This document shows, piece by piece, positions 1 to 30,303 of a stretch of DNA of 30,303 nucleotides. The first letter of the stretch is position 1, and the number at the start of each line of letters is the position of its first letter. The notes under the pieces are model-generated. The model searched no databases. It saw only the letters and a list, made by a program, of their open reading frames with translations, and was not told where the DNA came from. The stretch is taken from IMG/VR virus record IMGVR_UViG_2563366964_000009; one strand, written 5' to 3'. This DNA is from a virus (Duplodnaviria; Heunggongvirae; Uroviricota; Caudoviricetes). Both the position numbers and the translations under genes were made by a program.

Positions 1-981
1 TTATAACGTCACTCCGCCTTTTAGTGGATTCAGAGCGACGGCGTTCTGCAGGTAGTCAGGCGCAAGGTGCGCATAGGTCATTGTCTGCTGAATGCTCGCA
101 TGCCCCAGAATCTGTTGCAGTGCAATTATGTTGCCCCCATTCATCATGAAATGGCTTGCGAATGTATGCCGCAGAATGTGGGTTGCCTGATTGGGAGGTA
201 TATCAGGTTTCACTCTGCGTAAAATCCCGCAAAACTTCTCATAATCTACCTTGAACAATTTGGCGCTGGCCTCCTCTTTAACTTTTTTCTCCAGTTCCTC
301 AGAAATCGGCACTGTTCGCTTTTTACCGTTTTTGGTTTTCAGGAAGGTAACCCTGCAACTTGTAATCTGTGCTGGTTTTAGTGTGGCAACTTCCGTCCAC
401 CTTCCTCCAGTGCTCAGACATAAAAGCGCGACAAGTAAGTCATCACCAGTCAAAACATTTAGCAGTTTTTCGATTTCTGCTTTTTCCAGGAACGTCATTT
501 CAGGGTTAGCCTCCGTCAGTGGCGGCAGTCCGTGAATTGGGTGTTGCCCGGAAAATTCATCCAATTGAATTAATTTTGTGAACATGCCGGATAATCGGTA
601 CATGTCGCGGTTTATCGTTGCAGCACTGATGCCATCACGTAGTCGCATGGAGCGATAATCCATCAAAGCCCTTTTGTTCATCCGACTCACTGGTATATCA
701 CCTATGCCGCTGATGGTTTTGAGCAGATGATTAAACTCTTTTGTCCCATGCTCGTGGTTTTGCCCGTGGTATTTCCACCAGATGTCGAGCAATTCTGTCA
801 AAGTTCGGCGGTCTGCTCGCTGGCCTCCCCATTCTTTCTGACTGGCATTGGCGATTGTGTATCGCTCAAATGCTAGTGCTTCAGCTTTTCTTTCAAATTT
901 CCTGCGGATGCGTTTTCCGTCGCGACCGCGAGGTCTAATGTCCACTTCATAGCGACCATCATCGAGCTTCTTAATTGCCAT
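1..981 (-). CDS. int: P2-type tyrosine integrase (site-specific recombinase); start chosen at the MAIKK ATG with a GGAGG SD, alternative upstream ATG at 1011
   Basis: Minus-strand ORF; translation closely resembles P2 Int as recalled (MAIKKLDDGRYEVDIRP...), with a C-terminal catalytic region (HILRHTFASHF...LGHASIQQTMTYAHL) typical of tyrosine recombinases; stop at 1-3. Confidence 0.93.
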   Translation of the reverse strand: MAIKKLDDGRYEVDIRPRGRDGKRIRRKFERKAEALAFERYTIANASQKEWGGQRADRRTLTELLDIWWKYHGQNHEHGTKEFNHLLKTISGIGDIPVSRMNKRALMDYRSMRLRDGISAATINRDMYRLSGMFTKLIQLDEFSGQHPIHGLPPLTEANPEMTFLEKAEIEKLLNVLTGDDLLVALLCLSTGGRWTEVATLKPAQITSCRVTFLKTKNGKKRTVPISEELEKKVKEEASAKLFKVDYEKFCGILRRVKPDIPPNQATHILRHTFASHFMMNGGNIIALQQILGHASIQQTMTYAHLAPDYLQNAVALNPLKGGVTL

Positions 982-1050
982 AAGAAAGCCCTCCGGCGCT
1001 GTATTCACCATCTTGGTGGCAAATGGTGAAAATGTAATTTTTATATAGAG

Positions 1051-3236: not shown

Positions 3237-3508
3237 GTATTCGTATTGAAATTGGCGAACGTTATGTCGTTACCAGTGACAGCTTTCAGTTTATTCTCCA
3301 CGAGAAAAAGAGAGCGGAAAGCGGTAAAAACGCCGGTCAGGAATGGCTGGCGGTGGTTGGTTATTACCCGAAATTAAGCCAGCTCGTTTCCGGCCTGATG
3401 CATCACGATATTCTGACCGGAAGCGCAAAGTCTTTTGCTGATTTAAACGCGCAGGTTGAGCAACTCAGCAAGCGTTGTTCAGAGGCTTTTGGCTCATATG
3501 GCCGTTAA
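3233..3508 (+). CDS. Hypothetical early protein (P2 orf83 position)
   Basis: 91-aa ORF overlapping the previous stop; immediately precedes A. Confidence 0.6.
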   Translation: MSIRIEIGERYVVTSDSFQFILHEKKRAESGKNAGQEWLAVVGYYPKLSQLVSGLMHHDILTGSAKSFADLNAQVEQLSKRCSEAFGSYGR

Positions 3509-5780
3509 AGCCTCCGGGCGTTTTGTCCCTCCGTCAGCATTTGCCGCAGGCATCGGTGAGACGTTTACCGGTGCTTATGCATGGAACGCGCCACGCGAGG
3601 CCGTCGGGCGCGAAAGACCCCTTACACGTGACGAGATGCGTCAGGTGCAAGGTGTTTTATCCACGATTAATCGCCTGCCTTACTTTTTGCGCTCGCTGTT
3701 TACTTCACGCTATGACTACATCCGGCGCAATAAAAGCCCGGTGCACGGGTTTTATTTCCTCACATCCACTTTTCAGCGTCGTTTATGGCCGCGCATTGAG
3801 CGCGTTAATCAGCGCCATGAAATGAACACCGACGCGTCGTTGCTGTTTCTGGCAGAGCGTGACCACTATGCGCGCCTGCCTGGAATGAATGACAAGGAGC
3901 TGAAAAAGTTTGCCGCCCGTATCTCATCGCAGCTTTTCATAATGTATGAGGAACTCTGCGATGCCTGGGTGGATGCGCATGGCGAGAAAGAATCGCTGTT
4001 TACGGATGAGGCGCAGGCTCACCTGTATGGTCATGTTGCTGGCGCTGCACGTGCTTTCAATATTTCCCCGCTCTACTGGAAAAAATACCGTAAAGGGCAG
4101 ATGACCACGAGGCAGGCATATTCTGCCATTGCCCGTCTGTTTAACGATGAATGGTGGACTCATCAGCTTAAAGGCCAGCGTATGCGCTGGCATGAGGCGT
4201 TACTGATTGCTGTCGGGGAGGTCAATAAAGACCGTTCTCCTTATGCCAGTAAACATGCCATTCGTGATGTGCGTGCGCGCCGCCAGGCAAATCTGGAATT
4301 TCTTAAATCGTGTGACCTTGAAAACAGGGAAACCGGCGAGCGCATCGACCTTATCAGTAAGGTGATGGGCAGTATTTCTAATCCAGAAATTCGCCGGATG
4401 GAGCTGATGAACACCATCGCCGGTATTGAGCGTTACGCCGCCGCAGAGGGTGATGTGGGGATGTTTATCACGCTGACCGCGCCGTCAAAGTATCACCCGA
4501 CACGTCAGGTCGGAAAAGGCGAAAGTAAAACCGTCCAGCTTAATCACGGCTGGAACGATGAGGCATTTAATCCAAAGGATGCGCAGCGTTATCTCTGCCG
4601 CATCTGGAGCCTGATGCGCACGGCATTCAAGGATAATGATTTACAGGTCTACGGTTTGCGTGTCGTCGAGCCACACCACGACGGAACGCCGCACTGGCAT
4701 ATGATGCTTTTTTGTAATCCACGCCAGCGTAACCAGATTATCGAAATCATGCGGCGCTATGCGCTCAAAGAGGATGGTGACGAAAGAGGAGCCGCGCGAA
4801 ACCGTTTTCAGGCAAAGCACCTTAACCGGGGCGGTGCTGCGGGATATATCGCGAAATACATTTCAAAAAATATCGACGGCTATGCACTGGATGGTCAGCT
4901 CGATAACGATACCGGTAAGCCGCTTAAAGACACTGCAGCGGCTGTTACCGCATGGGCGTCAACGTGGCGCATCCCGCAATTTAAAACGGTTGGACTGCCG
5001 ACAATGGGGGCTTACCGTGAACTACGCAAATTGCCTCGCGGCGTCAGTATTGCTGATGAGTTTGACGAACGCGTCGAGGCTGCTCGCGCTGCCGCAGACA
5101 GTGGTGATTTTGCGTTGTATATCAGCGCGCAGGGTGGGGCAAATGTCCCGCGCGATTGTCAGACTGTCAGGGTTGCCCGTAGCCCGTCGGATGACGTTAA
5201 CGAGTACGAGGAAGAAGTCGAGAGAGTGGTCGGCATTTACGCGCCGCATCTCGGCGCGCGTCATATTCATATCACCAGAACGACGGACTGGCGCATTGTT
5301 CCGAAAGTTCCGGTCGTTGAGCCTTTGACTTTAAAAAGCGGCATCGCCGCGCCTCGGAGTCCTGTCAATAACTGTGGAAAACTCACCGGTGGTGATACTT
5401 CGTTACCGGCTCCCACACCTTCTGAGCACGCCGCAGCAGTGCTTAATCTGGTTGATGACGGTGTTATCGAATGGAGTGACCCGGAGGTCGTGAGGGCGCT
5501 CAGAGGTGCATTAAAACACAGTCGGAGAACGCCAAGTCGTCAGCAAAGAAACGGAAGCCCGTTAAAACCACATGAAATTGCACCATCGGCCAGACTGACC
5601 CGGTCGGAAAGAATGCAAATTACCCGTATCCGCGTTGACCTTGCTCAGAACGGTATCAGGCCGCAGCGATGGGAGCTTGAGGCGCTGGCGCGTGGCGCGA
5701 CCGTAAATTATGATGGGAAAAAATTCACGTATCCGGTTGTTGATGAGTGGCGGTGGTATATAGTTGATGGTAGGCGGTGA
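3498..5780 (+). CDS. A: Replication initiation protein A (rolling-circle nicking endonuclease); start taken at MAVKASGRF, alternative ATG at 3456
   Basis: 760-aa ORF; contains the tyrosine-rich active-site block GYIAKYISKNIDGY typical of P2 gpA/phiX174 A-type initiators; conserved position after the small early ORFs. Confidence 0.9.
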   Translation: MAVKASGRFVPPSAFAAGIGETFTGAYAWNAPREAVGRERPLTRDEMRQVQGVLSTINRLPYFLRSLFTSRYDYIRRNKSPVHGFYFLTSTFQRRLWPRIERVNQRHEMNTDASLLFLAERDHYARLPGMNDKELKKFAARISSQLFIMYEELCDAWVDAHGEKESLFTDEAQAHLYGHVAGAARAFNISPLYWKKYRKGQMTTRQAYSAIARLFNDEWWTHQLKGQRMRWHEALLIAVGEVNKDRSPYASKHAIRDVRARRQANLEFLKSCDLENRETGERIDLISKVMGSISNPEIRRMELMNTIAGIERYAAAEGDVGMFITLTAPSKYHPTRQVGKGESKTVQLNHGWNDEAFNPKDAQRYLCRIWSLMRTAFKDNDLQVYGLRVVEPHHDGTPHWHMMLFCNPRQRNQIIEIMRRYALKEDGDERGAARNRFQAKHLNRGGAAGYIAKYISKNIDGYALDGQLDNDTGKPLKDTAAAVTAWASTWRIPQFKTVGLPTMGAYRELRKLPRGVSIADEFDERVEAARAAADSGDFALYISAQGGANVPRDCQTVRVARSPSDDVNEYEEEVERVVGIYAPHLGARHIHITRTTDWRIVPKVPVVEPLTLKSGIAAPRSPVNNCGKLTGGDTSLPAPTPSEHAAAVLNLVDDGVIEWSDPEVVRALRGALKHSRRTPSRQQRNGSPLKPHEIAPSARLTRSERMQITRIRVDLAQNGIRPQRWELEALARGATVNYDGKKFTYPVVDEWRWYIVDGRR

Positions 5781-5956
5781 AAAGTTGAAGATGTGAACAC
5801 TGTTATTGGTAGGTAAGTAGATTTGTATGTATAAAGTAGTTGTTGTAGATATGAACAATCAGGCGTAGAATCGCCAGCCGGCTATGATGATTCCAGATGA
5901 TAATGGTTATCATTAGCTGTTGATTTATGATGTTCTTAACCACTAGAGAGACTAAT

Positions 5957-6154
5957 ATGAGCAAAAAGGTTATCACGATACAAGTAAGAGGTGGGCACGC
6001 AGGTGCTAAGCCTGTTCGTCGTTCAAAACTTGAACAAAGTGTTAATCGTTCCCTGCGTGCTTCGTTTTCTCTGGAAGGTAATCACATTACCAACACTTCA
6101 TGGTCTAAAATGTCGCAGGCTGCACGTTTTCTGACCAGAGTGGCTGTTGCTTAA
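5957..6154 (+). CDS. Small basic protein carrying a Fic-inhibitory-helix-like motif (candidate FicA-type antitoxin)
   Basis: 65-aa ORF from the ATG at 5957 (GAGAG SD-like upstream); motif S-F-S-L-E-G at 6062-6079 matches [S/T]xxxE[G/N]; its stop overlaps the convergent Fic gene stop in a shared TTAA (6151-6154). Confidence 0.5.
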   Translation: MSKKVITIQVRGGHAGAKPVRRSKLEQSVNRSLRASFSLEGNHITNTSWSKMSQAARFLTRVAVA

Positions 6155-7257
6155 AGCTCTTTGATTGCCCTTGAAATAAGGGCAATCAGATTTCTGTTAC
6201 TGTCGTGTATTGCGCGTCTTACAGCATAATGGTACGCACGTTTATTTCGCACATCTCCATCTAGCTTTTCCATATCAAATTCATAACCCATAGTAGTTGC
6301 AACAATCTGAAGAAATAATCGTATTGAACGACCATTACCATCTTGAAAGGGGTGGATCCATGCGATTTCTGCATGGAGAGTAGCTAGTTTATGAACTAAC
6401 TCTGCTTTAGAATTTATTTTGCTAAGTTCTTTTTTTGTGCAACCTCTAAGACAGGCTTTTAATGATTTTTTGACTTCATTATGTTCCATTGTTGGTCGCT
6501 CTTTATCTCCAACAACAACGGGATGGTTTCTGTATTCACCTGCCCAATCATAAATATGGCCAAAAAGAGCTTTATGGCATTCTAAGATCGTCTTTTCATT
6601 AATTGTTTTATTTTTGTCGGAGACATAGTTTATTATGAGCTGCGTACTTTTGATATATGAAATAACCATTTCGGCAAATTCAACTTGGTATTGATATTTT
6701 GCAAATACTAGATTTTTTGTTGCCATGTATTCATATCTTTCATTTTTCCCGTCACGTAAAAGAAAAATATTGTCTTTTTGGTGCTTTACTTTGATTACAT
6801 GATTGCGTTGAAATGGAAAGTTTTTGTCGTGAGGCAATATGTGAAAATAAGTTTCTTTTTTTAGCTTGTCTACACCAACAATTGAACCAAAAAGAAAAAG
6901 GGCTGCTGTTGTATTAAATAAAACACATACGGAGTCGCCAAGTTGTATCTCTTCGCGACTTAGATCGCATGTTTTTTTCTTATAATTAAATAAATGGGCG
7001 ATAGATGGTATGCTGTGATGATTGCGCAATGAACCTGAGCCACATATGACTTCTTTTGTCCTGCTATTCCAGTAATAATTAATGCTTCTCTTATTCTCTT
7101 GTGTTCTTTTTATATGAACCAACTTGAAGCTAAGTAGGCTTAAAGAGAATTCACCATTCTTTTTGACTATATTAACTTTTTGGTGTTTCATTTTGTTTTT
7201 TTTGTTAGTGTTATTGAAAAATGTTTTGAAGGTATCATGTTTTGAGTAAGAATGCAT
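6151..7257 (-). CDS. Fic/Doc-family protein (predicted AMP-transferase toxin) with an uncharacterised ~200-aa N-terminal domain
   Basis: 368-aa minus-strand ORF; canonical Fic active-site motif HPFQDGNGRSIR preceded by the core block KALFGHIYDWAGEYRN; strongly AT-rich, K/N/I/F/Y-rich N-terminal half. Confidence 0.85.
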   Translation of the reverse strand: MHSYSKHDTFKTFFNNTNKKNKMKHQKVNIVKKNGEFSLSLLSFKLVHIKRTQENKRSINYYWNSRTKEVICGSGSLRNHHSIPSIAHLFNYKKKTCDLSREEIQLGDSVCVLFNTTAALFLFGSIVGVDKLKKETYFHILPHDKNFPFQRNHVIKVKHQKDNIFLLRDGKNERYEYMATKNLVFAKYQYQVEFAEMVISYIKSTQLIINYVSDKNKTINEKTILECHKALFGHIYDWAGEYRNHPVVVGDKERPTMEHNEVKKSLKACLRGCTKKELSKINSKAELVHKLATLHAEIAWIHPFQDGNGRSIRLFLQIVATTMGYEFDMEKLDGDVRNKRAYHYAVRRAIHDSNRNLIALISRAIKEL

Positions 7258-7620
7258 GGTTATTATAACATGTTAGAGTTTTATCGCTAAAAAATGGATG
7301 TAGTGAGAAGTTTGTTGCTCATGACATTTACACTTAAGATGAACAGGAGGTGCTGTTTCGGTAAGATTATCTTTGTCCCATCACATAGCACAGCTCAATT
7401 TATCACTCATATCTTCATTTCCTTCCAGTGACAACACAAAGCTTTAAAGTCACCTTCTGTGATGCTGCTTTATGTCATTTCATAAGATCAGAGTTATGCA
7501 TGCATTAGGTGCATGGCTTTGCATGTATCAGAATTATACGTTTTCGGCGTCCGACATCACAGCTAGTTTGGATTCAGAGATGTCATGCAACCGCATTAAA
7601 ACCTCCACATGAAGCGGGCG

Positions 7621-7639
7621 GGCGAGGCGGGGAAAGCAC
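7621..7639. other. cos site (19-nt cohesive-end sequence, P2 type)
   Basis: Sequence GGCGAGGCGGGGAAAGCAC matches the P2 cohesive end as recalled; lies just outside the end of Q as in P2. Confidence 0.7.
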
Positions 7640-7781
7640 TGCGCGCTGGCGGTGGTGCGGATTTTATTTTTTCAGCGTCTCAGCGCGTCGTGACGGCGCT
7701 TAGTCTGCCCGTTGAGGCGTTGGTGTGTCTGCGGGGTGTTTTGTGCGGTGGTGAGCGTGTGAGGGGGTGATGACGGGGTGT

Positions 7782-7803
7782 AAAAAAGCCGCCCGCAGGC
7801 GGC
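7782..7803 (-). terminator. Rho-independent terminator downstream of Q (minus strand)
   Basis: On the minus strand the region reads GCCGCC-TGCG-GGCGGC followed by a T-run (plus strand: AAAAAAGCCGCCCGCAGGCGGC), a few nt past the Q stop. Confidence 0.6.
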
Positions 7804-7808
7804 GATGT

Positions 7809-8843
7809 TCAGCCGTTGTCAGTGTCCAGTGAGTAGTTTTTAAATCGGATGACCTCCTGACCGAGCCAGCCGTTTATTTCGCGGATCCTGTCCTGTAACG
7901 GGATAAGCTCATTGCGGACAAAGACCTTTGCCACTTTCTCAATATCACCCAGCGACCCGACGTTCTCCGGCTTGCCCCCCATCAACTGAAAGGGGATGCG
8001 ATGCGCGTCCAGCAGGTCAGCGGCGCTGGCTTTTTTGATATTAAAAAAATCGTCCTTCGTTGCCACTTCACTGAGCGGGATAATTTTAATGCCGTCGGCT
8101 TTCCCCTGTGGGGCATAGAGAAACAGATTTTTAAAGTTATTGCGGCCTTTCGACTTAACCATGTTTTCGCGAAGCATTTCGATATCGTTGCGATCCTGCA
8201 CGGCATCGGTGACGTACATGATGTATCCGGCATGAGCGCCGTTTTCGTAATACTTGCGGCGGAACAGCGTGGCCGACTCATTCAGCCAGGCAGAGTTAAG
8301 GGCGCTGAGATATTCCGGCAGGCCGTACAGCTCCTGATTAATATCCGGCTCCAGCAGGTGAAACACGGAGCCGGGTGCGAAGGCTGTCGGCTCGTTGAAG
8401 GACGGCACCCACCAGTAAACATCCTCTTCCACACCACGGCGGGTATATTTTGCCGGTGAGGTTTCCAGTCTGATGACCTTACCGGTGGTGCTGTAACGCT
8501 TTTCCAGAAACGCATTACCGAACACCAGAAAATCCAGCACAAAGCGGCTGAAATCCTGTTGCGAAAGCCACGGATGCGGGATAAACGTTGAAGCCAGAAT
8601 ATTGCGTTTGACGTAAATCGGTGAGCTGTGATGCACGGCAGCACGCAGGCTTTTTGCCAGACCGGTAAAGCTGACCGGTGGCTCATACCATCTGCCGTTA
8701 CTGATGCACTCGACGTAATCCAGAATGTCACGGCGGTCGAGTACCGGCACCGGCTCACCAAAGGTGAATGCCTCCATTTTCGGGGCGCTGGCGGTCATTG
8801 TTTTTGCCGCAGGTTGCGGTGTTTTCCCTTTTTTCTTGCTCAT
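7809..8843 (-). CDS. Q: Portal protein
   Basis: 344 aa; N-terminus MSKKKGKTPQPAAK... and overall sequence resemble P2 gpQ as recalled; adjacent to cos and terminase. Confidence 0.95.
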   Translation of the reverse strand: MSKKKGKTPQPAAKTMTASAPKMEAFTFGEPVPVLDRRDILDYVECISNGRWYEPPVSFTGLAKSLRAAVHHSSPIYVKRNILASTFIPHPWLSQQDFSRFVLDFLVFGNAFLEKRYSTTGKVIRLETSPAKYTRRGVEEDVYWWVPSFNEPTAFAPGSVFHLLEPDINQELYGLPEYLSALNSAWLNESATLFRRKYYENGAHAGYIMYVTDAVQDRNDIEMLRENMVKSKGRNNFKNLFLYAPQGKADGIKIIPLSEVATKDDFFNIKKASAADLLDAHRIPFQLMGGKPENVGSLGDIEKVAKVFVRNELIPLQDRIREINGWLGQEVIRFKNYSLDTDNG

Positions 8844-10615
8844 CAGTAAAACTCCAGAATGGTGGATGTCAGCGGGGTACTGATACCGGCGGTGAGTGGC
8901 TCATTTAACAGGGCGTGCATGGTCGCCCAGGCGAGGTCGGCGTGGCTGGCTTCCTCGCTGCGGCTGGCCTCATAGGTGGCGCTGCGTCCGCTGCTGGTCA
9001 TGGTCTTGCGGATAGCCATAAACGAGCTGGTGATGTCGGTGGCGCTGACGTCATATTCCAGACAGCCACGGCGAATAACGTCTTTTGCCTTGAGCACCAT
9101 TGCGGTTTTCATTTCCGGCGTGTAGCGGATATCGCGCGCGGCGGGATAGAACGAGCGCACGAGCTGGAACACGCCGACACCGAGGCCGGTGGCATCAATG
9201 CCGATGTATTCGACGTTGTATTTTTCGGTGAGTTTGCGGATGGATTCCGCCTGGGTGGCAAAGTCCATGCCTTTCCACTGGTGACGCTCAAGTATTCTGA
9301 ATTTGCCACCGGCCACCACCGGCGGTGCCAGTACCACGCATCCGGCGCTGTCGCCACGGTGTGACGGGTCGTAACCAATCCATACCGGACGGGAGCCGAA
9401 CGGATTGGCGGCAAACGGCGCATAGTCTTCCCATTCTTCCAGCGTGTCGACCATGCAGCGTTGCAGCTCCTCGAACGGGAACACCGACGCCTTGTCGTCA
9501 ACAAATTCACACATGAACAGGTTTTTAAAATCGTCGGCGCTGTTTTCACGTTTGAGCTGCTCAATGTCGAACAGTGTGCAGCCACCTTTCAGGGCGTCCT
9601 CAATGGTGACAATCTGCCGCCACTGACCGTCCGCACAGAGAAGACCTCCGGCAAGGGCGTTATGACTGACGTCGATTTCCACGCGCTCGGCGGCGCTGGC
9701 GCGTCCCCGGTTGAACAGTTCACCCGACCAGAACGGATAGGCGTCGTGCGCCAGCGTGGACGGGGTGGAGAAATAGGTCGATCGCAGGTGACTCTGTGAG
9801 GCCATACCTGATGCCACCTTACGCAGCACCTGAAAATTCGGGATCCAGAAAATCTCGTCGACGTACAGGTCGCCGTTATGGCTCTGCGCGGTGTTGGAGT
9901 TGGTGCCGAGAAAAATCAGTTTTGCGCCGTTATTGCCCAGGACAATCGGGTCACCGGTCAGGTCAACATCAACCAGACGGGCAAAGGCGATGATGTATTC
10001 GCGGAACACATACGCCTGCGTTTTACTGGCCGACAGAAAAATCTGGTTATGACCGGTTTTCAGGGCGCGCAGCAGCGCCTCGCGGGAAAAATAAAACGTC
10101 GCGCCAATCTGGCGGGATTTCAGGATATCGCGGATGCGGTGCTCAAGCCCGGCGCGATACCAGTGCAACTGATAGTCGAAAGACTGCTCAAAGAAAATCT
10201 GCTCCAGCTTTTCGATGGCCTCGTCACTGAAAAAATTCTTTTTCGGTTTGCGCCGCCCGCCTTTGTTGCGGTTAGCGACGTTCGGATTAAGGTCTGCCTC
10301 GTTGCCGGTCTGGCTGTAGCGGTTGACCCGTGCCAGTCGTTCAATCTGGCGTCCGAGCAGGTCAATTTCCTTGAAGTCACCGCCGGTTTTCTGCGGTTTG
10401 ATGATGAGCTGGGTCAGCCGCGCTTCCAGACTCATTTCGACACGGCTGATGGGGGCAACGCTGTCCCAGCCGTCGCGCTGTTTCCAGCTCTGCACCGTCG
10501 GGCGTTTCATCTGCAACATGGCGGCAATCTGCGGCACGGAAAACCCCTGCCAGTACAGCAGCGCCGCCTGACGACGCGGGTCGTGTAAAAGAGTGGTGTC
10601 TGTGGTGATGGTCAT
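8843..10615 (-). CDS. P: Terminase large subunit (ATPase/nuclease)
   Basis: N-terminus MTITTDTTLLHDPRRQAALLYWQGFSVPQIAAMLQ resembles P2 gpP; the ORF-track start at 10645 is a TTG and the ATG at 10613-10615 is preferred; stop overlaps the Q start. Confidence 0.95.
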   Translation of the reverse strand: MTITTDTTLLHDPRRQAALLYWQGFSVPQIAAMLQMKRPTVQSWKQRDGWDSVAPISRVEMSLEARLTQLIIKPQKTGGDFKEIDLLGRQIERLARVNRYSQTGNEADLNPNVANRNKGGRRKPKKNFFSDEAIEKLEQIFFEQSFDYQLHWYRAGLEHRIRDILKSRQIGATFYFSREALLRALKTGHNQIFLSASKTQAYVFREYIIAFARLVDVDLTGDPIVLGNNGAKLIFLGTNSNTAQSHNGDLYVDEIFWIPNFQVLRKVASGMASQSHLRSTYFSTPSTLAHDAYPFWSGELFNRGRASAAERVEIDVSHNALAGGLLCADGQWRQIVTIEDALKGGCTLFDIEQLKRENSADDFKNLFMCEFVDDKASVFPFEELQRCMVDTLEEWEDYAPFAANPFGSRPVWIGYDPSHRGDSAGCVVLAPPVVAGGKFRILERHQWKGMDFATQAESIRKLTEKYNVEYIGIDATGLGVGVFQLVRSFYPAARDIRYTPEMKTAMVLKAKDVIRRGCLEYDVSATDITSSFMAIRKTMTSSGRSATYEASRSEEASHADLAWATMHALLNEPLTAGISTPLTSTILEFY

Positions 10616-10788
10616 GAATACCTCGCCGTGATGAATACACGGCAAGGCTACTGAGTCGCGCCCCGCGATTCGCTAAGGTGCTGTTGTGTCAGTGATAAGC
10701 CATCCGGGACTGATGGCGGAGGATGCGCATCGTCGGGAAACTGATGCCGACATGTGACTCCTCTAATCACTATTCAGGACTCCTGACA
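10616..10788. promoter_or_regulatory. Divergent late promoter region between P (minus) and O (plus)
   Basis: Divergent intergenic region at the position of the P2 late promoters; no clean TGT-N12-ACA Ogr-type dyad could be confirmed by eye. Confidence 0.35.
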
Positions 10789-18948: not shown

Positions 18949-19552
18949 TTCGCGACTGCTGCCGACCGGCTCATCACCGCTTGAAGTTGCCGCCGCAAAA
19001 GCCTGTGCGGAAATTGAAAAAACGCCGGTCAGTATTCGTGAACTGTGGAACCCGGATACCTGCCAGGCAAATCTGCTGCCGTGGCTGGCGTGGTCATTTT
19101 CGGTTGACCGCTGGGATGATAAGTGGCCGGAAGCGACAAAACGCGCTGTTATCCGCGATGCGTATTTCATTCACTGTCATAAAGGCACTATAGGTGCAAT
19201 CCGGCGTGTGGTGGAGCCGCTCGGCTATCTGATTGAGGTGAGGGAGTGGTGGCAGCTCAACGAGGAGCCGGGGACGTTCCGTATCGTTGTTGGCGTGCTT
19301 GAGCAGGGTATTACCGAAGAAATGTATCAGGAGCTGGAGCGCCTCGTTGCTGATGCAAAACCGGCGAGCCGCCATCTGACGGGACTGGCTATCAGTTTAA
19401 GTACAACCGGCAACATTTTTGCCGGTGCGGGATGCTATCACGGCGACGCCCTGACGGTTTATCCCTACACCCCGGAGGCCATTATTGTCGGAGGGGATTA
19501 TTTCCCGGCCTCGGCCATTCATTTAATTGATAACCTGAGAGTAAACGCATGA
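18941..19552 (+). CDS. I: Baseplate protein I
   Basis: 203 aa; overlaps the J stop and the H start. Confidence 0.9.
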   Translation: MSDSRLLPTGSSPLEVAAAKACAEIEKTPVSIRELWNPDTCQANLLPWLAWSFSVDRWDDKWPEATKRAVIRDAYFIHCHKGTIGAIRRVVEPLGYLIEVREWWQLNEEPGTFRIVVGVLEQGITEEMYQELERLVADAKPASRHLTGLAISLSTTGNIFAGAGCYHGDALTVYPYTPEAIIVGGDYFPASAIHLIDNLRVNA

Positions 19553-20628
19553 CAGTGAAATACTACGCCATTCTGACTAATCAGGGCGCAGCACGGCTGG
19601 CTAACGCGACGATGCTCGGCAGTAAGCTGAATCTGACGCAAATGGCCGTTGGTGATGCGAATGGTGTCTTGCCGACACCAGACCCGGCACAGACAAAACT
19701 GATTAACCAGAAACGCATCGCGCCGCTGAATCTTCTGAGTGTTGACCCGAACAACCAGAGCCAGATTATTGCGGAGCAAATCATCCCTGAGAACGAGGGC
19801 GGATTCTGGATCCGTGAGATTGGGCTTTATGATGATGAAGGCGTACTCATTGCGGTGGCGAACTGCCCGGAAACGTACAAACCGCAGTTGCAGGAAGGCA
19901 GTGGTCGTACCCAGACTATCCGCATGATTCTGGTTGTCACGAATACCGAAGCTATCACGCTGAAAATCGACCCGTCGGTGGTACTGGCGACCCGTAAATA
20001 CGTGGATGATGAAGTCCTGGAATTAAGGCTGTATGTGGATGACCAGATGAGAAACCACATTGCCGCACAGGATCCTCATACCCAGTATGCGCAGAAACAT
20101 AATCCGACATTTACCGGAGAACCAAAAGCGCCGACGCCTGCCGCAGGAAATAACACCACGCGGATTGCGACCACTGCGTTTGTTCAGGCGGCTATTACCG
20201 CTCTGATTAACGGTGCGCCTGCCACGCTGGATACACTGAAAGAAATTGCCGCAGCCATTAACAATGACCCGAAATTCAGCACTACCATTAACAATGCGCT
20301 GGCAGGTAAACAACCGCTGGACAATACGCTGACTCATTTGAGTGGAAAGGATGTTGCCGGTCTTCTCGCATACCTTGGTTTGGGAGAAGGTGCTCCAGCT
20401 GTTGTGGTCCCGTTCGTTTATCCGACAGCGGCTATGCGAACAACTGCATTCGGCTCGGGATCCGTCATGCTACTTTTGGAATATATCGTGGAGTTTTTCA
20501 CTTCCTCAGATTACACGGCCCTGGTGATAAGGTTTCATTTGCCTGTACTATCTCCAGATCAGGCGAAGTTTTTTCGTAGTGGTAATTATGAGAAAGTTGA
20601 GGCAGGTCGGTGCAATTCAGCAAGCTAG
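19549..20628 (+). CDS. H: Tail fibre protein H: constant N-terminal part fused at the crossover site to an ~80-aa variable C-terminal cassette (current orientation)
   Basis: N-terminal ~270 aa resemble P2 gpH (...NTEAITLKIDPSVVLATRKYVDDE..., ...NNALAGKQP...); the crossover site 20363-20388 lies in frame (LLAYLGLGE); total 359 aa, much shorter than P2 H as recalled. Confidence 0.85.
   Translation: MTVKYYAILTNQGAARLANATMLGSKLNLTQMAVGDANGVLPTPDPAQTKLINQKRIAPLNLLSVDPNNQSQIIAEQIIPENEGGFWIREIGLYDDEGVLIAVANCPETYKPQLQEGSGRTQTIRMILVVTNTEAITLKIDPSVVLATRKYVDDEVLELRLYVDDQMRNHIAAQDPHTQYAQKHNPTFTGEPKAPTPAAGNNTTRIATTAFVQAAITALINGAPATLDTLKEIAAAINNDPKFSTTINNALAGKQPLDNTLTHLSGKDVAGLLAYLGLGEGAPAVVVPFVYPTAAMRTTAFGSGSVMLLLEYIVEFFTSSDYTALVIRFHLPVLSPDQAKFFRSGNYEKVEAGRCNSAS
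20363..20388. repeat. Invertase crossover site (gix/hix/pix-like), left copy
   Basis: TTCTCGCATACCTTGGTTTGGGAGAA, an imperfect 26-bp palindrome; matches the reverse complement of 22185-22210 at 21 of 26 positions, with the right 14 bp identical. Confidence 0.7.
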
Positions 20629-21944
20629 GTTGTGTCTACAAACTTTGCACATATCGGTGAGACAGCATGGGGTGTGGCAGGAAACGATATCTCCTATCAT
20701 GATGGCATCACTGGAATTCCGACAGGACGGTCGCAATGCAAAGTTATCTTTTAAGCGCTGAGAAATGTTGGTTTTTTCGTTTCTAGCTGAAAGCCAAATA
20801 TTGGAATTACGGTGCTGGGCACGGCGATAGAATCAAAATTGTTTTCACTGTTGACGGCGAGTCTACAGAGCCGGCCCCAGAACGAAGATTCTGATATGAT
20901 ACTGACACATTTGAGGATTGGGGCTGGTTTCCTGAATCTATTCATGAGGGCGAAATTGCCGCCGCCTGTCCCACTAGTCATGAATCTATTAATAACATCC
21001 ACGGAAGAGTAACCATAATGCAAGGGCCTGGAAGAACGCCGGTTGGTGGCCAGCGCGATGAGAAAGTTGAGCAATACAATAAGGGTCTGGATTTTCTAGA
21101 GGATTATAAACGTGTCGACACATACGGTGCTCTAACGATTGCATGGTCAACGCCATCGGAAGAACGGGACGGTTGGAATCCGGTGACATGTAGTTAGCTG
21201 TTACCGCCACCCGCTGTATATGATCCAGCAGGACATTAACACTGGCTGATTGTGGCTGCAATAGCTTCCATCAGTCTGATTCATTTAAATTAACAGGCCG
21301 GACGGAAGCCGACGCAGGATGAAACAACGCGTGGTACCGCGGTGCTGCAGCGTATTCACCGGGTGAATGCTACGCCTCCGAATATGGCGCCCAATTTTAT
21401 CTAGCCTGATTTGCGTGTGGCGTTGACCGTTCAATAGCGGGAGAACCGTAATTGATGGCCAGTATATATTCCACTGTATCATCCACCCCCAAATTGTATG
21501 GGTCCACATTCTCACCTCTAAGGTCATCATTAGCGCTCCATCCAGTACCTGGAAATACGGCCATGTTTCCCTGAACGTGTTCAACAAGTTCATGACTATT
21601 CAAACAGGCGGCGACACTTAGGTCCGCATGAGTTTATTCTTGAGACTCAACCCTTGACGGAATTCTGTCAGCAACGCATCTATATTATCGTTCTTCTGCT
21701 TCCATTGTAACTAGCGCATTATCATCAACAACAATTTTCATTACATCGCCCTCACATTAACCTTAATCCCGATATGTCGCGGTATGATCGAAACGGAATA
21801 ACGCCCTTTTCCCGGCGATTTAAATGTATAACTGCATCGTGACAATCCTGGCGGATTTTCGCCGAATCCGTATTGAAAGGAAATAGCGTGGGTTGCCACA
21901 CGGCATGCTTAACTAGTGAAATGATCAAAGTTTGCAGACTAAAC

Positions 21945-22210
21945 CTACCTTAATAATATGCAACCACCATCCGCACCTTTATCGTACACCCCGCTACCAG
22001 AGACATCCGCCTGGTCTTGGGATAGTACAAGGGAGTGTCCACTTTTAGACAGGGCAGAGTAACCTGTGAAAGAGCCATACGCCACATTATATCCCCAAGG
22101 CACCCTAAACCACCCCCAGTCAGAAACGATATTTGCCATTGCCGGGGTCGGACAAAAGACCGGGACCACATCCGTTGTAGCACCTTCTCCCAAACCAACG
22201 TTTATGAAAA
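21945..22210 (-). other. Promoterless alternative tail-fibre C-terminal cassette (would be fused to H after inversion)
   Basis: Minus-strand reading frame through the right crossover site encodes ...GLGEGATTDVVPVFCPTPAM..., homologous to the current H C-terminus (...GLGEGAPAVVVPFVYPTAAM...); stop at 21945-21947. Confidence 0.55.
22185..22210. repeat. Invertase crossover site, right copy (inverted)
   Basis: TTCTCCCAAACCAACGTTTATGAAAA; its reverse complement TTTTCATAAACGTTGGTTTGGGAGAA aligns with the left copy. Confidence 0.7.
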
Positions 22211-22259
22211 TGCAGAGATAACGGGCAACTGGCATCATCTCCGGTTTTTATTCAGGGGG

Positions 22260-22859
22260 ATGCTCATGCTTATTGGCTATGTACGCGTGTCAACAAATGA
22301 CCAGAACACGGAATTGCAGCGTAACGCGCTGGAGTGTGCAGGATGTGAGCTGATTTTTGAGGATAAAATCAGCGGTACGAAGTCCGACCGACCGGGACTG
22401 AAAAAACTGCTCAGAACATTATCAGCAGGTGACACTCTGGTAGTCTGGAAGCTGGACCGGCTGGGGCGTAGTATGCGGCATCTGGTCATTCTGGTTGAGG
22501 AGCTGCGCGAACGCGGCGTTAATTTTCGCAGCCTGACAGATGCTATTGATACCAGCACGCCGATGGGGCGTTTTTTCTTTCATGTGATGGGTGCCCTGGC
22601 TGAAATGGAGCGAGAACTCATTGTCGAGCGGACACGCGCCGGACTGGAAGCGGCCAGAGCCAAAGGGCGTATTGGTGGCAGACGTCCGAAGCTCACCGCG
22701 AGTGAGTGGGAACAGGCAGGACGGTTGCTGGCTGCGGGTGAATCACGTCAACGCGTGGCGCTGATTTTTGATATTGGCCTGTCCACGCTCTATAAAAAAT
22801 TCCCCTCATCAGCGGCAAAGAATAAATTGTGTCATCCCTTAGCCAACCGGGACAAATAG
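22260..22859 (+). CDS. Serine recombinase, DNA invertase of the Gin/Hin/Cin/Pin family (start at 22260 or 22266)
   Basis: MLIGYVRVSTNDQNTELQRNAL...GDTLVVWKLDRLGRSMRHL...RFFFHVMGALAEMERELIVERT is a textbook resolvase/invertase catalytic domain (catalytic Ser in YVRVST) with a C-terminal HTH (LSTLYKKF); the ORF-track extension 22035-22259 crosses the crossover site and is not coding for the invertase. Confidence 0.92.
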   Translation: MLMLIGYVRVSTNDQNTELQRNALECAGCELIFEDKISGTKSDRPGLKKLLRTLSAGDTLVVWKLDRLGRSMRHLVILVEELRERGVNFRSLTDAIDTSTPMGRFFFHVMGALAEMERELIVERTRAGLEAARAKGRIGGRRPKLTASEWEQAGRLLAAGESRQRVALIFDIGLSTLYKKFPSSAAKNKLCHPLANRDK

Positions 22860-29661: not shown

Positions 29662-30303
29662 ATGGAAAAAGTTATAATTGAGCTTGATAATCGTTGGGAG
29701 TTAGCTGATTTCGCGGTCTTAACGAAAGAGTATTTGCAGCTATATGGTTTTTTTTATGGCCTAAAAGGAGGATCAAGAGGATATTCAACAATGCCTTGGG
29801 AGGGTGGGCACAGTGTGGTGAATTTTTTTAGAGGGGCTTACAGTGCGACTCCACCAGATTTACGTCCTGTAGTGAAAAAAATTCAGTATGCCTCTCCTGG
29901 CTTTATTGAATTGTCTGCTCTTATTGATATCTCTTGGCAGATTGCTGAGTTAGTTACTGCTGTTGGTGGAAGTATTCTGGCTGCCAACAAAGTTTACGAT
30001 CAGGTGATGCGTACATATCGACAAAGAGAATGGGCAAAGTTGAAATCAGAGAAGCTGCGTATACAGAATCAAATTAAAGAGATTGAACTTGTTTCTGACG
30101 CAGTTAAATCACTTGAATCTGTGATGGCACTTAGTGAAGAACAACGTAAAAACTTGGTTCAACTATCGGGGGCAGATGAACTGGTTCAGTTAAAGATACT
30201 TTTGGCTGTTTACCGACGGTTATCTCCTCTTGTTGAGTTGCAAAACAGCGGGAAAGCTAATTTTTCTGCTGGGAAAAATAAAAATTTAAAAGCGTCCGAT
30301 TAA
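29662..30303 (+). CDS. Hypothetical protein, AT-rich, unknown function (prophage-end moron or host-flank gene)
   Basis: 213-aa ORF with ATG at 29662, a GGTGG SD-like sequence and a candidate -10 TATACT at about 29618-29623; lies behind the ogr terminator; AT-rich relative to the phage late genes; I recognise no motif. Confidence 0.55.
   Translation: MEKVIIELDNRWELADFAVLTKEYLQLYGFFYGLKGGSRGYSTMPWEGGHSVVNFFRGAYSATPPDLRPVVKKIQYASPGFIELSALIDISWQIAELVTAVGGSILAANKVYDQVMRTYRQREWAKLKSEKLRIQNQIKEIELVSDAVKSLESVMALSEEQRKNLVQLSGADELVQLKILLAVYRRLSPLVELQNSGKANFSAGKNKNLKASD

Follow-up and report, generated by a model that had tools for sequence, protein, structure and literature searches.

A Fic toxin gene facing a small gene with a Fic-inhibitory motif in the cargo slot of a P2-like prophage: a predicted class-I-like FicTA module

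The inhibitory helix of Fic enzymes is defined by the motif [S/T]xxxE[G/N], which the enzymes of class I obtain from a small antitoxin that is a protein in its own right (PMC5033356). Known ficA–ficT pairs form a single operon with the antitoxin gene coming first (PMC5033356), and class I toxins solved together with their antitoxins include VbhT/VbhA of Bartonella schoenbuchensis, EcFicT/EcFicA of E. coli, also known as Fic/YhfG, and Fic-1/AntF of Pseudomonas. Here we describe a locus from the IMG/VR virus record IMGVR_UViG_2563366964_000009, a stretch of 30,303 nucleotides (hereafter the window) that corresponds to a complete P2-like (Peduovirus) prophage. The locus lies in the gap between the phage genes A and Q, a site called the “TO region”, which harbours tin and old in P2 itself and is known as a hotspot of anti-phage cargo (Rousset et al. 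2022, PMC9122126). The cargo occupies approximately positions 5841–7290 and includes a minus-strand gene for a Fic-domain protein and a plus-strand gene for a protein of 65 amino acids, which is predicted to be an antitoxin supplying the inhibitory motif in trans. The best explanation of the locus as a whole, to which we assign a probability of roughly 0.62, is that it constitutes a self-contained class-I-like FicTA module working by the mechanism proposed below.

The Fic open reading frame (ORF) contains the core segment KALFGHIYDWAGEYRN and the active-site motif HPFQDGNGRSIR (HxFx[D/E]GNGRxxR; 6319..6354, minus strand), both read from the sequence, and the Pfam family Fic (PF02661) matches its residues 219–318 with an E-value of 6.5e-17 and a score of 62.6 bits, the cut-off being 24. 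Across 22 homologues there is no variation in the motif residues H, P, F, D, G, N, G, R, I and R. The top sequence matches in the PDB are VbhT (2e-12) and E. coli Fic, and the structure predicted by AlphaFold2 from the alignment of the 22 homologues (predicted local distance difference test score, pLDDT, 88; predicted template modelling score, pTM, 0.84) exhibits the Fic fold, with the FicT toxins VbhT, EcFicT and Fic-1 being its nearest neighbours in a structure search. The FicT-like core (6154..6747, minus strand) makes up the C-terminal ~200 residues, including an N-terminal lead-in segment, RYEYMATKNL. Judged by these features, the Fic domain is catalytically canonical rather than degenerate, and the toxin is intact and probably active. 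The motif [S/T]xxxE[G/N] is absent from the protein as well as from 21 homologues. An earlier note on this DNA, made from the letters alone, had described the ORF as carrying a Fic motif with the upstream core, considered the domain to be of an active type unless it proved degenerate, and found no inhibitory motif inside it; the description holds in each of these points, the profile match and the invariance of the motif speaking for a non-degenerate domain and the lack of an internal inhibitory motif extending to the homologues.

The small convergent gene (5957..6154, plus strand) terminates with a stop codon that overlaps the Fic stop by 4 nucleotides. Its product matches over the full length phrog_9918 (E=6e-45), a phage family of unknown function, and is annotated in E. 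coli E302 as the hypothetical protein WP_016236400. Residues 36–41 of this protein, SFSLEG (6062..6079, plus strand), correspond to the inhibitory-helix motif [S/T]xxxE[G/N] as defined previously (PMC5033356); the respective context is SLRASFSLEGN, compared with ALASQRLEGL in VbhA (PDB 3shg_B) and FQASRRLEGV in YhfG/EcFicA (PDB 5jff_B). When 15 small proteins are aligned, only two residues turn out to be invariant, S36 and E40, that is, exactly the Ser and Glu of the motif, with the last motif position occupied by G in 13 sequences and by N in one, and lost in one (SFEIEF). All 11 partner proteins first examined carry the motif. It arises in 4.1% of shuffles of a single small protein; judging from the alignments, its fixation is not a coincidence, because it is kept at one aligned position across considerable divergence and beside a Fic protein devoid of an internal copy. 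The presence of a convergent ORF for a 65-residue protein with these two sole invariant residues also lends support to the idea, put forward before, that the Fic enzyme is inhibited in trans. The small gene is uncalled in four of 13 loci for which we looked up contig sequence covering its position, and the annotated records examined either leave it unannotated or list it merely as a hypothetical protein. Partners of this kind will be missed by annotation pipelines and defence finders that expect the antitoxin gene upstream.

The two genes occur together well beyond the window. Neighbourhoods were inspected beside toxin homologues ranging from 76% down to ~30% identity, and the 11 lineages thus covered comprise P2-like prophages or phages of Salmonella, Dickeya, Yersinia ruckeri, Pectobacterium and Serratia, plus non-phage settings, namely a chromosomal site in Photorhabdus and a 4.7-kb Rep3 plasmid of Providencia, and also four metagenome contigs. 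Toxin and small gene converge in all 11 lineages, with an ORF of 62–81 codons facing the end of the Fic gene at a spacing that ranges from a 41-nucleotide overlap to a 15-nucleotide gap. The linkage is matched by the size of the two families, each of which consists of 32 clusters.

Further evidence comes from the regulatory elements of the small gene. Its promoter (5843..5871, plus strand; TTGTAG, 17 nucleotides, TAGAAT), from which transcription is predicted to start at ~5878, aligns with TTGAAA-17-TATACT in Dickeya, where the equivalent was found independently by a scanner with 10 of 12 matches, and is conserved as similar hexamers in phage FSL SP-004, Y. ruckeri and Pectobacterium. Just beyond the stop codon of the small gene is an intrinsic terminator (6160..6199, plus strand), detected by both a scanner and a repeat finder and consisting of a hairpin (6160–6190) and a T-rich tail. 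The hairpin, with 11 perfect base pairs, or 14 when wobble pairs are included, sits within the last codons of the Fic gene (LIALISRAI) and is found at the same codons in seven lineages. Its arms exhibit compensatory substitutions despite amino-acid changes, as is apparent from the arm pairs TGATTGCCC/GGGCAATCA and TGATCGCCC/GGGCGATCA, with TGATTGCTC/GAGCAATCA and CTAACTGCC/GGCGGTTAG representing further covarying pairs, so the hairpin structure itself is under selection. The Dickeya terminator was likewise recovered by the scanner and scores there on the Fic strand too, i.e. it is bidirectional. In the window the hairpin lacks a T-tail when read on the Fic strand, and Fic transcripts may therefore run antisense across the small gene. 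The convergent layout with an embedded, covarying terminator thus offers a natural example of toxin–antitoxin regulation without an operon.

The small gene adjoins gene A and has the same direction in each of the six P2-like contexts; the scanner found no terminator between the two genes, either in the window or at the Dickeya locus. Read-through from the early operon could thus increase antitoxin levels while the phage itself grows lytically. In the P2-like prophage of Y. ruckeri (L017 5848–6968) an insertion sequence element with an rve transposase is located between the Fic module and gene A, and the antitoxin is therefore cut off from such read-through there. The leader of the small gene in the window contains the palindrome TGATAATGGTTATCA (5898..5912, plus strand), identified by the repeat finder, which may serve as an operator or form a structure in the leader RNA; its TGATA(N5)TATCA is retained in FSL SP-004, and GGTTATCA recurs at 5968–5975 (plus strand), just inside the coding sequence.

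The toxin differs from a bare Fic domain by an N-terminal extension of ~148 residues (6748..7191, minus strand), which is basic and predicted by the AlphaFold2 model to be all-beta, with a small sheet followed by a five-stranded SH3/Tudor-like barrel. It includes the conserved blocks VHIKKT, NYYWN and EIQLGDSV. A search against a viral structure library gave no match at E<=0.001, and a profile of the domain run against 1.84 billion representative proteins retrieved only 20 matches. All eight of the longer ones checked (315–371 residues) possess a C-terminal Fic domain, and two long outliers, once scanned, look like low-complexity noise. With profile matches confined to Fic fusions, the domain is, by this measure, a rare accessory exclusive to the Fic family described here. 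The isoelectric point (pI) of the domain is 9.4–10.1 in 17 of 18 proteins, a basicity that has to be read with caution, as an AT-rich gene inflates the content of Lys and Asn. A function in target or ligand recognition is a reasonable assumption, and a sensor role, raised in the earlier note, is a guess. That note was right in postulating an extra N-terminal domain, which is real, and less accurate in making it ~200 residues long and unassigned: the size is ~150 residues and the general fold is assignable.

From the domains, motifs, gene linkage, promoter and terminator conservation and genomic contexts observed, we infer how the module may work, from physical inhibition and toxicity to target, trigger and a defence phenotype. 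The helix of the antitoxin bearing SFSLEG would enter the ATP site of the Fic domain, where its Glu, E40, would pair with R291, the last Arg of HPFQDGNGRSIR, and prevent ATP from binding productively, which is the mode of action of VbhA and EcFicA. Because the genes are convergent and the antitoxin gene has a promoter and a terminator of its own, the levels of toxin and antitoxin would be set independently. Loss or displacement of the antitoxin would leave free Fic to AMPylate an essential host protein, and growth would stop. The trigger might be either a ligand bound by the N-terminal domain or an infecting phage shutting off host gene expression, and the outcome might be the exclusion of competing phages (abortive infection), the killing of cells losing the element, or both. 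Our best guess at the target, by analogy with VbhT and Fic-1, is GyrB/ParE, given that the FicT toxins, the nearest relatives, modify both proteins (PMC5033356, PMC13327609).

Several observations weigh against the interpretation of the locus as a FicTA module with this mechanism and a role in defence. The convergent order contradicts the rule of a single operon with ficA upstream, and one distant partner, with SFEIEF, has lost the G/N of the motif. Searches of Pfam, NCBIfam and the PDB (with phmmer and with a profile) gave no significant match for the small protein, and a profile of 15 partners run against 5.8 billion proteins did not lead to any named antitoxin, the small-protein family retrieved by it consisting of 32 clusters, all unnamed. 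An hhalign comparison with VbhA plus YhfG puts the motif in register with ASQRLEG and ASRRLEG, with an E-value of 0.014 and a probability of 3%. As sequence searches gave nothing significant, we claim no homology to FicA, only the shared motif and the linkage. The small protein is, moreover, very basic (pI 10–12). Known FicA antitoxins are acidic or neutral. The target cannot be safely inferred from relatives at ~24% identity, and SoFic, another Fic enzyme, targets EF-Tu according to a 2026 preprint. Relatives of the module reside on plasmids of 4–9 kb, where addiction fits as well as defence, and a gene of PDC-S04, the PADLOC class that is the top match of our Fic protein, gave no protection when tested in its native host, E. 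coli NILS69 (PMC12409345).

A defence function of the module, suggested in the earlier note with the Fic protein as a candidate abortive-infection effector, is plausible on circumstantial grounds, which include the P2 A–Q hotspot, the PDC-S04 match (2.7e-33) and the Septu pair adjoining a distant homologue. A possible, if unlikely, alternative is that the same module serves for addiction or stabilization, with post-segregational killing keeping the prophage or plasmid in the cell rather than protecting it from phages. It would suit homologous modules that are the main cargo of 4.3–9 kb plasmids, and FicTA modules on pVbh have been interpreted as addiction modules (PMC5675462); plasmid-partition genes are, in addition, present in about one quarter of P2 hotspots (PMC9122126), and the PDC-S04 test without a defence effect (PMC12409345) points the same way. 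However, integrated P2-like prophages are stable and thus gain little from killing cells that have lost them, the A–Q slot is enriched for validated defence genes (PMC9122126), and one homologue adjoins Septu; the addiction and defence roles are, at any rate, mutually compatible. If the cassette proved to be an addiction device only, the gain would be a modest improvement of annotation. If the FicTA module does defend, it would be the first class I Fic system, i.e. one with an antitoxin acting in trans, for which protection has been shown, and its function would be the first to be assigned to any Fic cargo of the P2 hotspot. The question is cheap to address, since viable phages with the identical cassette exist (R18C, the vB_YpM phages and STYP1).

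A bolder version of the defence reading, which we regard as distinctly unlikely, has the basic SH3-like domain, as a sensor or target adaptor, binding a phage product or nucleic acid and thereby freeing Fic from its inhibitor, the gene layout acting as a self-immunity circuit, and the whole forming a distinct abortive-infection system. The prophage's own lytic transcription would then raise the antitoxin, while foreign phages would trigger the toxin. If true, this would mean a Fic abortive-infection system, a sensing domain and a mode of toxin–antitoxin regulation that are all new.

Quite improbable is the notion that the Fic gene is a phage “moron” that reversibly tunes the host gyrase/topoisomerase or translation, or encodes an effector acting on a eukaryotic host in the manner of Bartonella Beps, IbpA or VopS. 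The same P2 slot does carry virulence cargo such as cytolethal distending toxin (PMC9122126), the Fic-1–AntF complex is a deAMPylase regulating gyrase (PMC13327609), and host-targeted Fic effectors evolved out of FicTA modules (PMC5675462). On the other hand, neither the Pfam scan nor the fold searches of the Fic protein revealed a BID or other delivery domain, the dedicated and strictly linked inhibitor points to an intracellular bacterial target, and the hosts include plant and insect pathogens as well as environmental metagenomes. That the small ORF is no antitoxin at all, being an unrelated conserved phage gene or bearing a chance motif while Fic is controlled by its N-terminal domain or by auto-AMPylation, is highly improbable: statistically supported homology to FicA/VbhA is lacking, the motif appears in 4% of shuffled sequences, the orientation is atypical and class I Fic proteins also possess an N-terminal “lock” (PMC5033356), but the small ORF accompanies Fic outside phages as well, the sole invariant positions in 15 diverged sequences are the Ser and Glu of the motif, and the promoter and terminator of the small gene are conserved.

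The extent of the toxin gene itself required a correction. The uninterrupted minus-strand ORF spans 6151..7257 and counts 368 codons from its first ATG, which the earlier note had taken as the start. The second ATG, Met23 (7191), is most likely the true start, giving a toxin gene at 6151..7191 (minus strand) supported by the ORF, Pfam Fic, phrog_10690 and RefSeq, and a product of 346 residues. This is because the RefSeq annotation of the gene also has 346 residues, phrog_10690 covers residues 23–368 (E=1e-220), all homologues in the alignment of 22 begin at Met23, the DNA resembles that of phage FSL SP-004 only up to the vicinity of the Met23 codon (window position ~7194), and a candidate promoter is positioned accordingly. 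The first ATG (7257) was rejected, as the RefSeq, phrog_10690 and homologue evidence begins at Met23 and the sequence upstream is unconserved. The candidate promoter (7262..7290, minus strand; TTAGCG, 17 nucleotides, TGtTATAAT) is a weakly supported assignment, read by eye and lying below the scanner threshold; it would feature an extended -10 element, TGTTATAAT, at 7270–7262, with a transcription start predicted, again by eye, at ~7255, atop the first ATG. No Fic promoter conserved across lineages was found, the region upstream of the Fic gene differing between them.

The Fic gene has left traces in databases and the literature. The protein is 100% identical to cluster P0001, which represents 248 contigs, and the toxin family comprises 32 clusters. 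Nine near-identical phage records come down to six distinct phages (STYP1, vB_YpM_22, VB-YPM-18, 476A, 476B and R18C), and the Fic copy of FSL SP-004 is 76% identical. Seven distinct P2-like phage genomes, as well as E. coli RefSeq entries, label the gene “Fic family protein” or “vbhT”, and it is present in 11–12 of 5,426 complete E. coli genomes. It was mentioned as a moron of unknown function in the R18C paper (PMC6823313), and “Fic + hypothetical (WP_016236400)” is listed among the P2-hotspot arrangements in Table S5 of Rousset et al. (2022). The suggestion that the locus may be an undescribed variant was thus overstated, the gene being annotated in seven phages and the pair being listed in 2022. 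“Fic” does not occur among the tested systems in Table S2 of Rousset et al., and in the literature searched we found no published test of the cassette, nor a description of the facing ORF as an inhibitor, of the convergent layout with an embedded terminator or of the family-specific N-terminal domain.

Some of the inspected neighbourhoods have features of their own. In FSL SP-004 two hypothetical genes, for 143 and 91 amino acids, separate the Fic module from cos in the same hotspot (L002 4487–5108). Both are without a PADLOC match, and the former, which is upstream of the Fic gene on the same strand, may be co-transcribed with it. Related modules form the main cargo of non-mobilizable plasmids of 4.3–9 kb in Klebsiella, Pectobacterium and Providencia. 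On one metagenome contig (L010 1844–5153) a Septu pair lies beside a distant Fic homologue, with PtuB recognized at E=3e-97 and PtuA (846 residues) fused to an N-terminal N6 methyltransferase region, an unusual architecture for PtuA.

As for the setting, the P2-like prophage begins on the left with the integrase gene (1–1011, minus strand) and a helix-turn-helix (HTH) repressor-like gene. The left flank of the cassette is the P2 replication gene A (3456–5780, plus strand), with the small gene directly downstream and co-directional, and the right flank is conserved cos-proximal DNA (7577–7808), similarity to other P2-like phages resuming only from ~7577. Beyond it are gene Q, annotated as portal (7809–8843, minus strand), and terminase gene P (8843–10645, minus strand), followed by structural genes. 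The location in the P2 hotspot, which had been recognized before, is borne out by the placement of the cassette between gpA and gpQ. The guanine–cytosine (GC) content drops from ~55% in the phage to 33–40% across 6001–7500, so the insert is imported DNA. Additional genes were sought in 7258–7808, but apart from the conserved cos-proximal DNA the segment contains only short ORFs that lack conservation.

Elsewhere in the window, a serine invertase (Resolvase + HTH_7; a 274-codon ORF at 22035–22859) adjoins a short tail-fibre gene (19549–20628), recognized by its Phage_tail_fib N-terminal domain, as well as a number of unassigned ORFs that are located on the minus strand in a stretch of lower GC content (20500–22000). 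Taken together, the region 19549–22859 has the look of a host-range switch that works by tail-fibre inversion, as in the Mu G / P1 C type; the true start of the invertase is probably further in, as the ORF begins at GTG and the Resolvase match starts at residue 80. At the right end, beyond ogr, an ORF of 213 codons with a GC content of 39% and no Pfam match (29662–30303, plus strand) runs to the end of the window and is probably host flank or other cargo.

How, then, does the module compare with known systems? As in class I FicT/FicA pairs, the toxin has no internal inhibitory motif and an adjacent small protein bears [S/T]xxxE[G/N]. In those pairs, however, ficA precedes the toxin gene within a single operon, whereas here the genes converge and their 3′ ends overlap. 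FicT toxins have ~200 residues, and the extra domain of VbhT is a C-terminal BID domain, in contrast to the extra beta domain of 150 residues at the N-terminus of the protein described here; the partner is strongly basic and shares no detectable sequence homology with FicA/VbhA beyond the motif. NCBIfam scores are far under the equivalog cut-offs, with 47 against 800 for VbhT and 52 against 181 for E. coli Fic.

Fic enzymes had already entered the repertoire of anti-phage defence with SoFic, a Fic enzyme acting as a toxic effector (Millman et al. 2022), and Fic-only proteins were already a PADLOC candidate class, which further tempers the novelty initially attributed to the locus. SoFic belongs to class II, has an internal inhibitory helix and is ~360 residues long with a C-terminal domain, unlike the present protein, which is without an internal motif. 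In EcSofic a small downstream gene, AS1, counteracts toxicity in E. coli (PMC12249575). Membership in SoFic was rejected, the NCBIfam SoFic score being 15 bits against 550 and the PADLOC SoFic match (1.8e-13) covering only the core (91–208 of 361). The top PADLOC match is PDC-S04 (E=2.7e-33; residues 179–366 aligned to profile positions 21–203 of 205), an unvalidated class of Fic-only, FicT-type single-gene candidates of ~205 residues that are enriched in defence islands; its models span only the Fic core, so both the N-terminal domain and the partner gene fall outside the PDC-S04 definition. Phd/Doc of phage P1 is similar in combining a Fido-fold toxin with a protein antitoxin on a temperate phage; assignment to the Doc kinases was rejected (TIGR01550, 13.8 bits against 38.65), the motif here reading GNGR. 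Finally, old and tin of P2, with their unrelated proteins and mechanisms, share with the Fic module the slot between A and Q/cos, from which they act as exclusion genes expressed from the prophage (PMC6823313).

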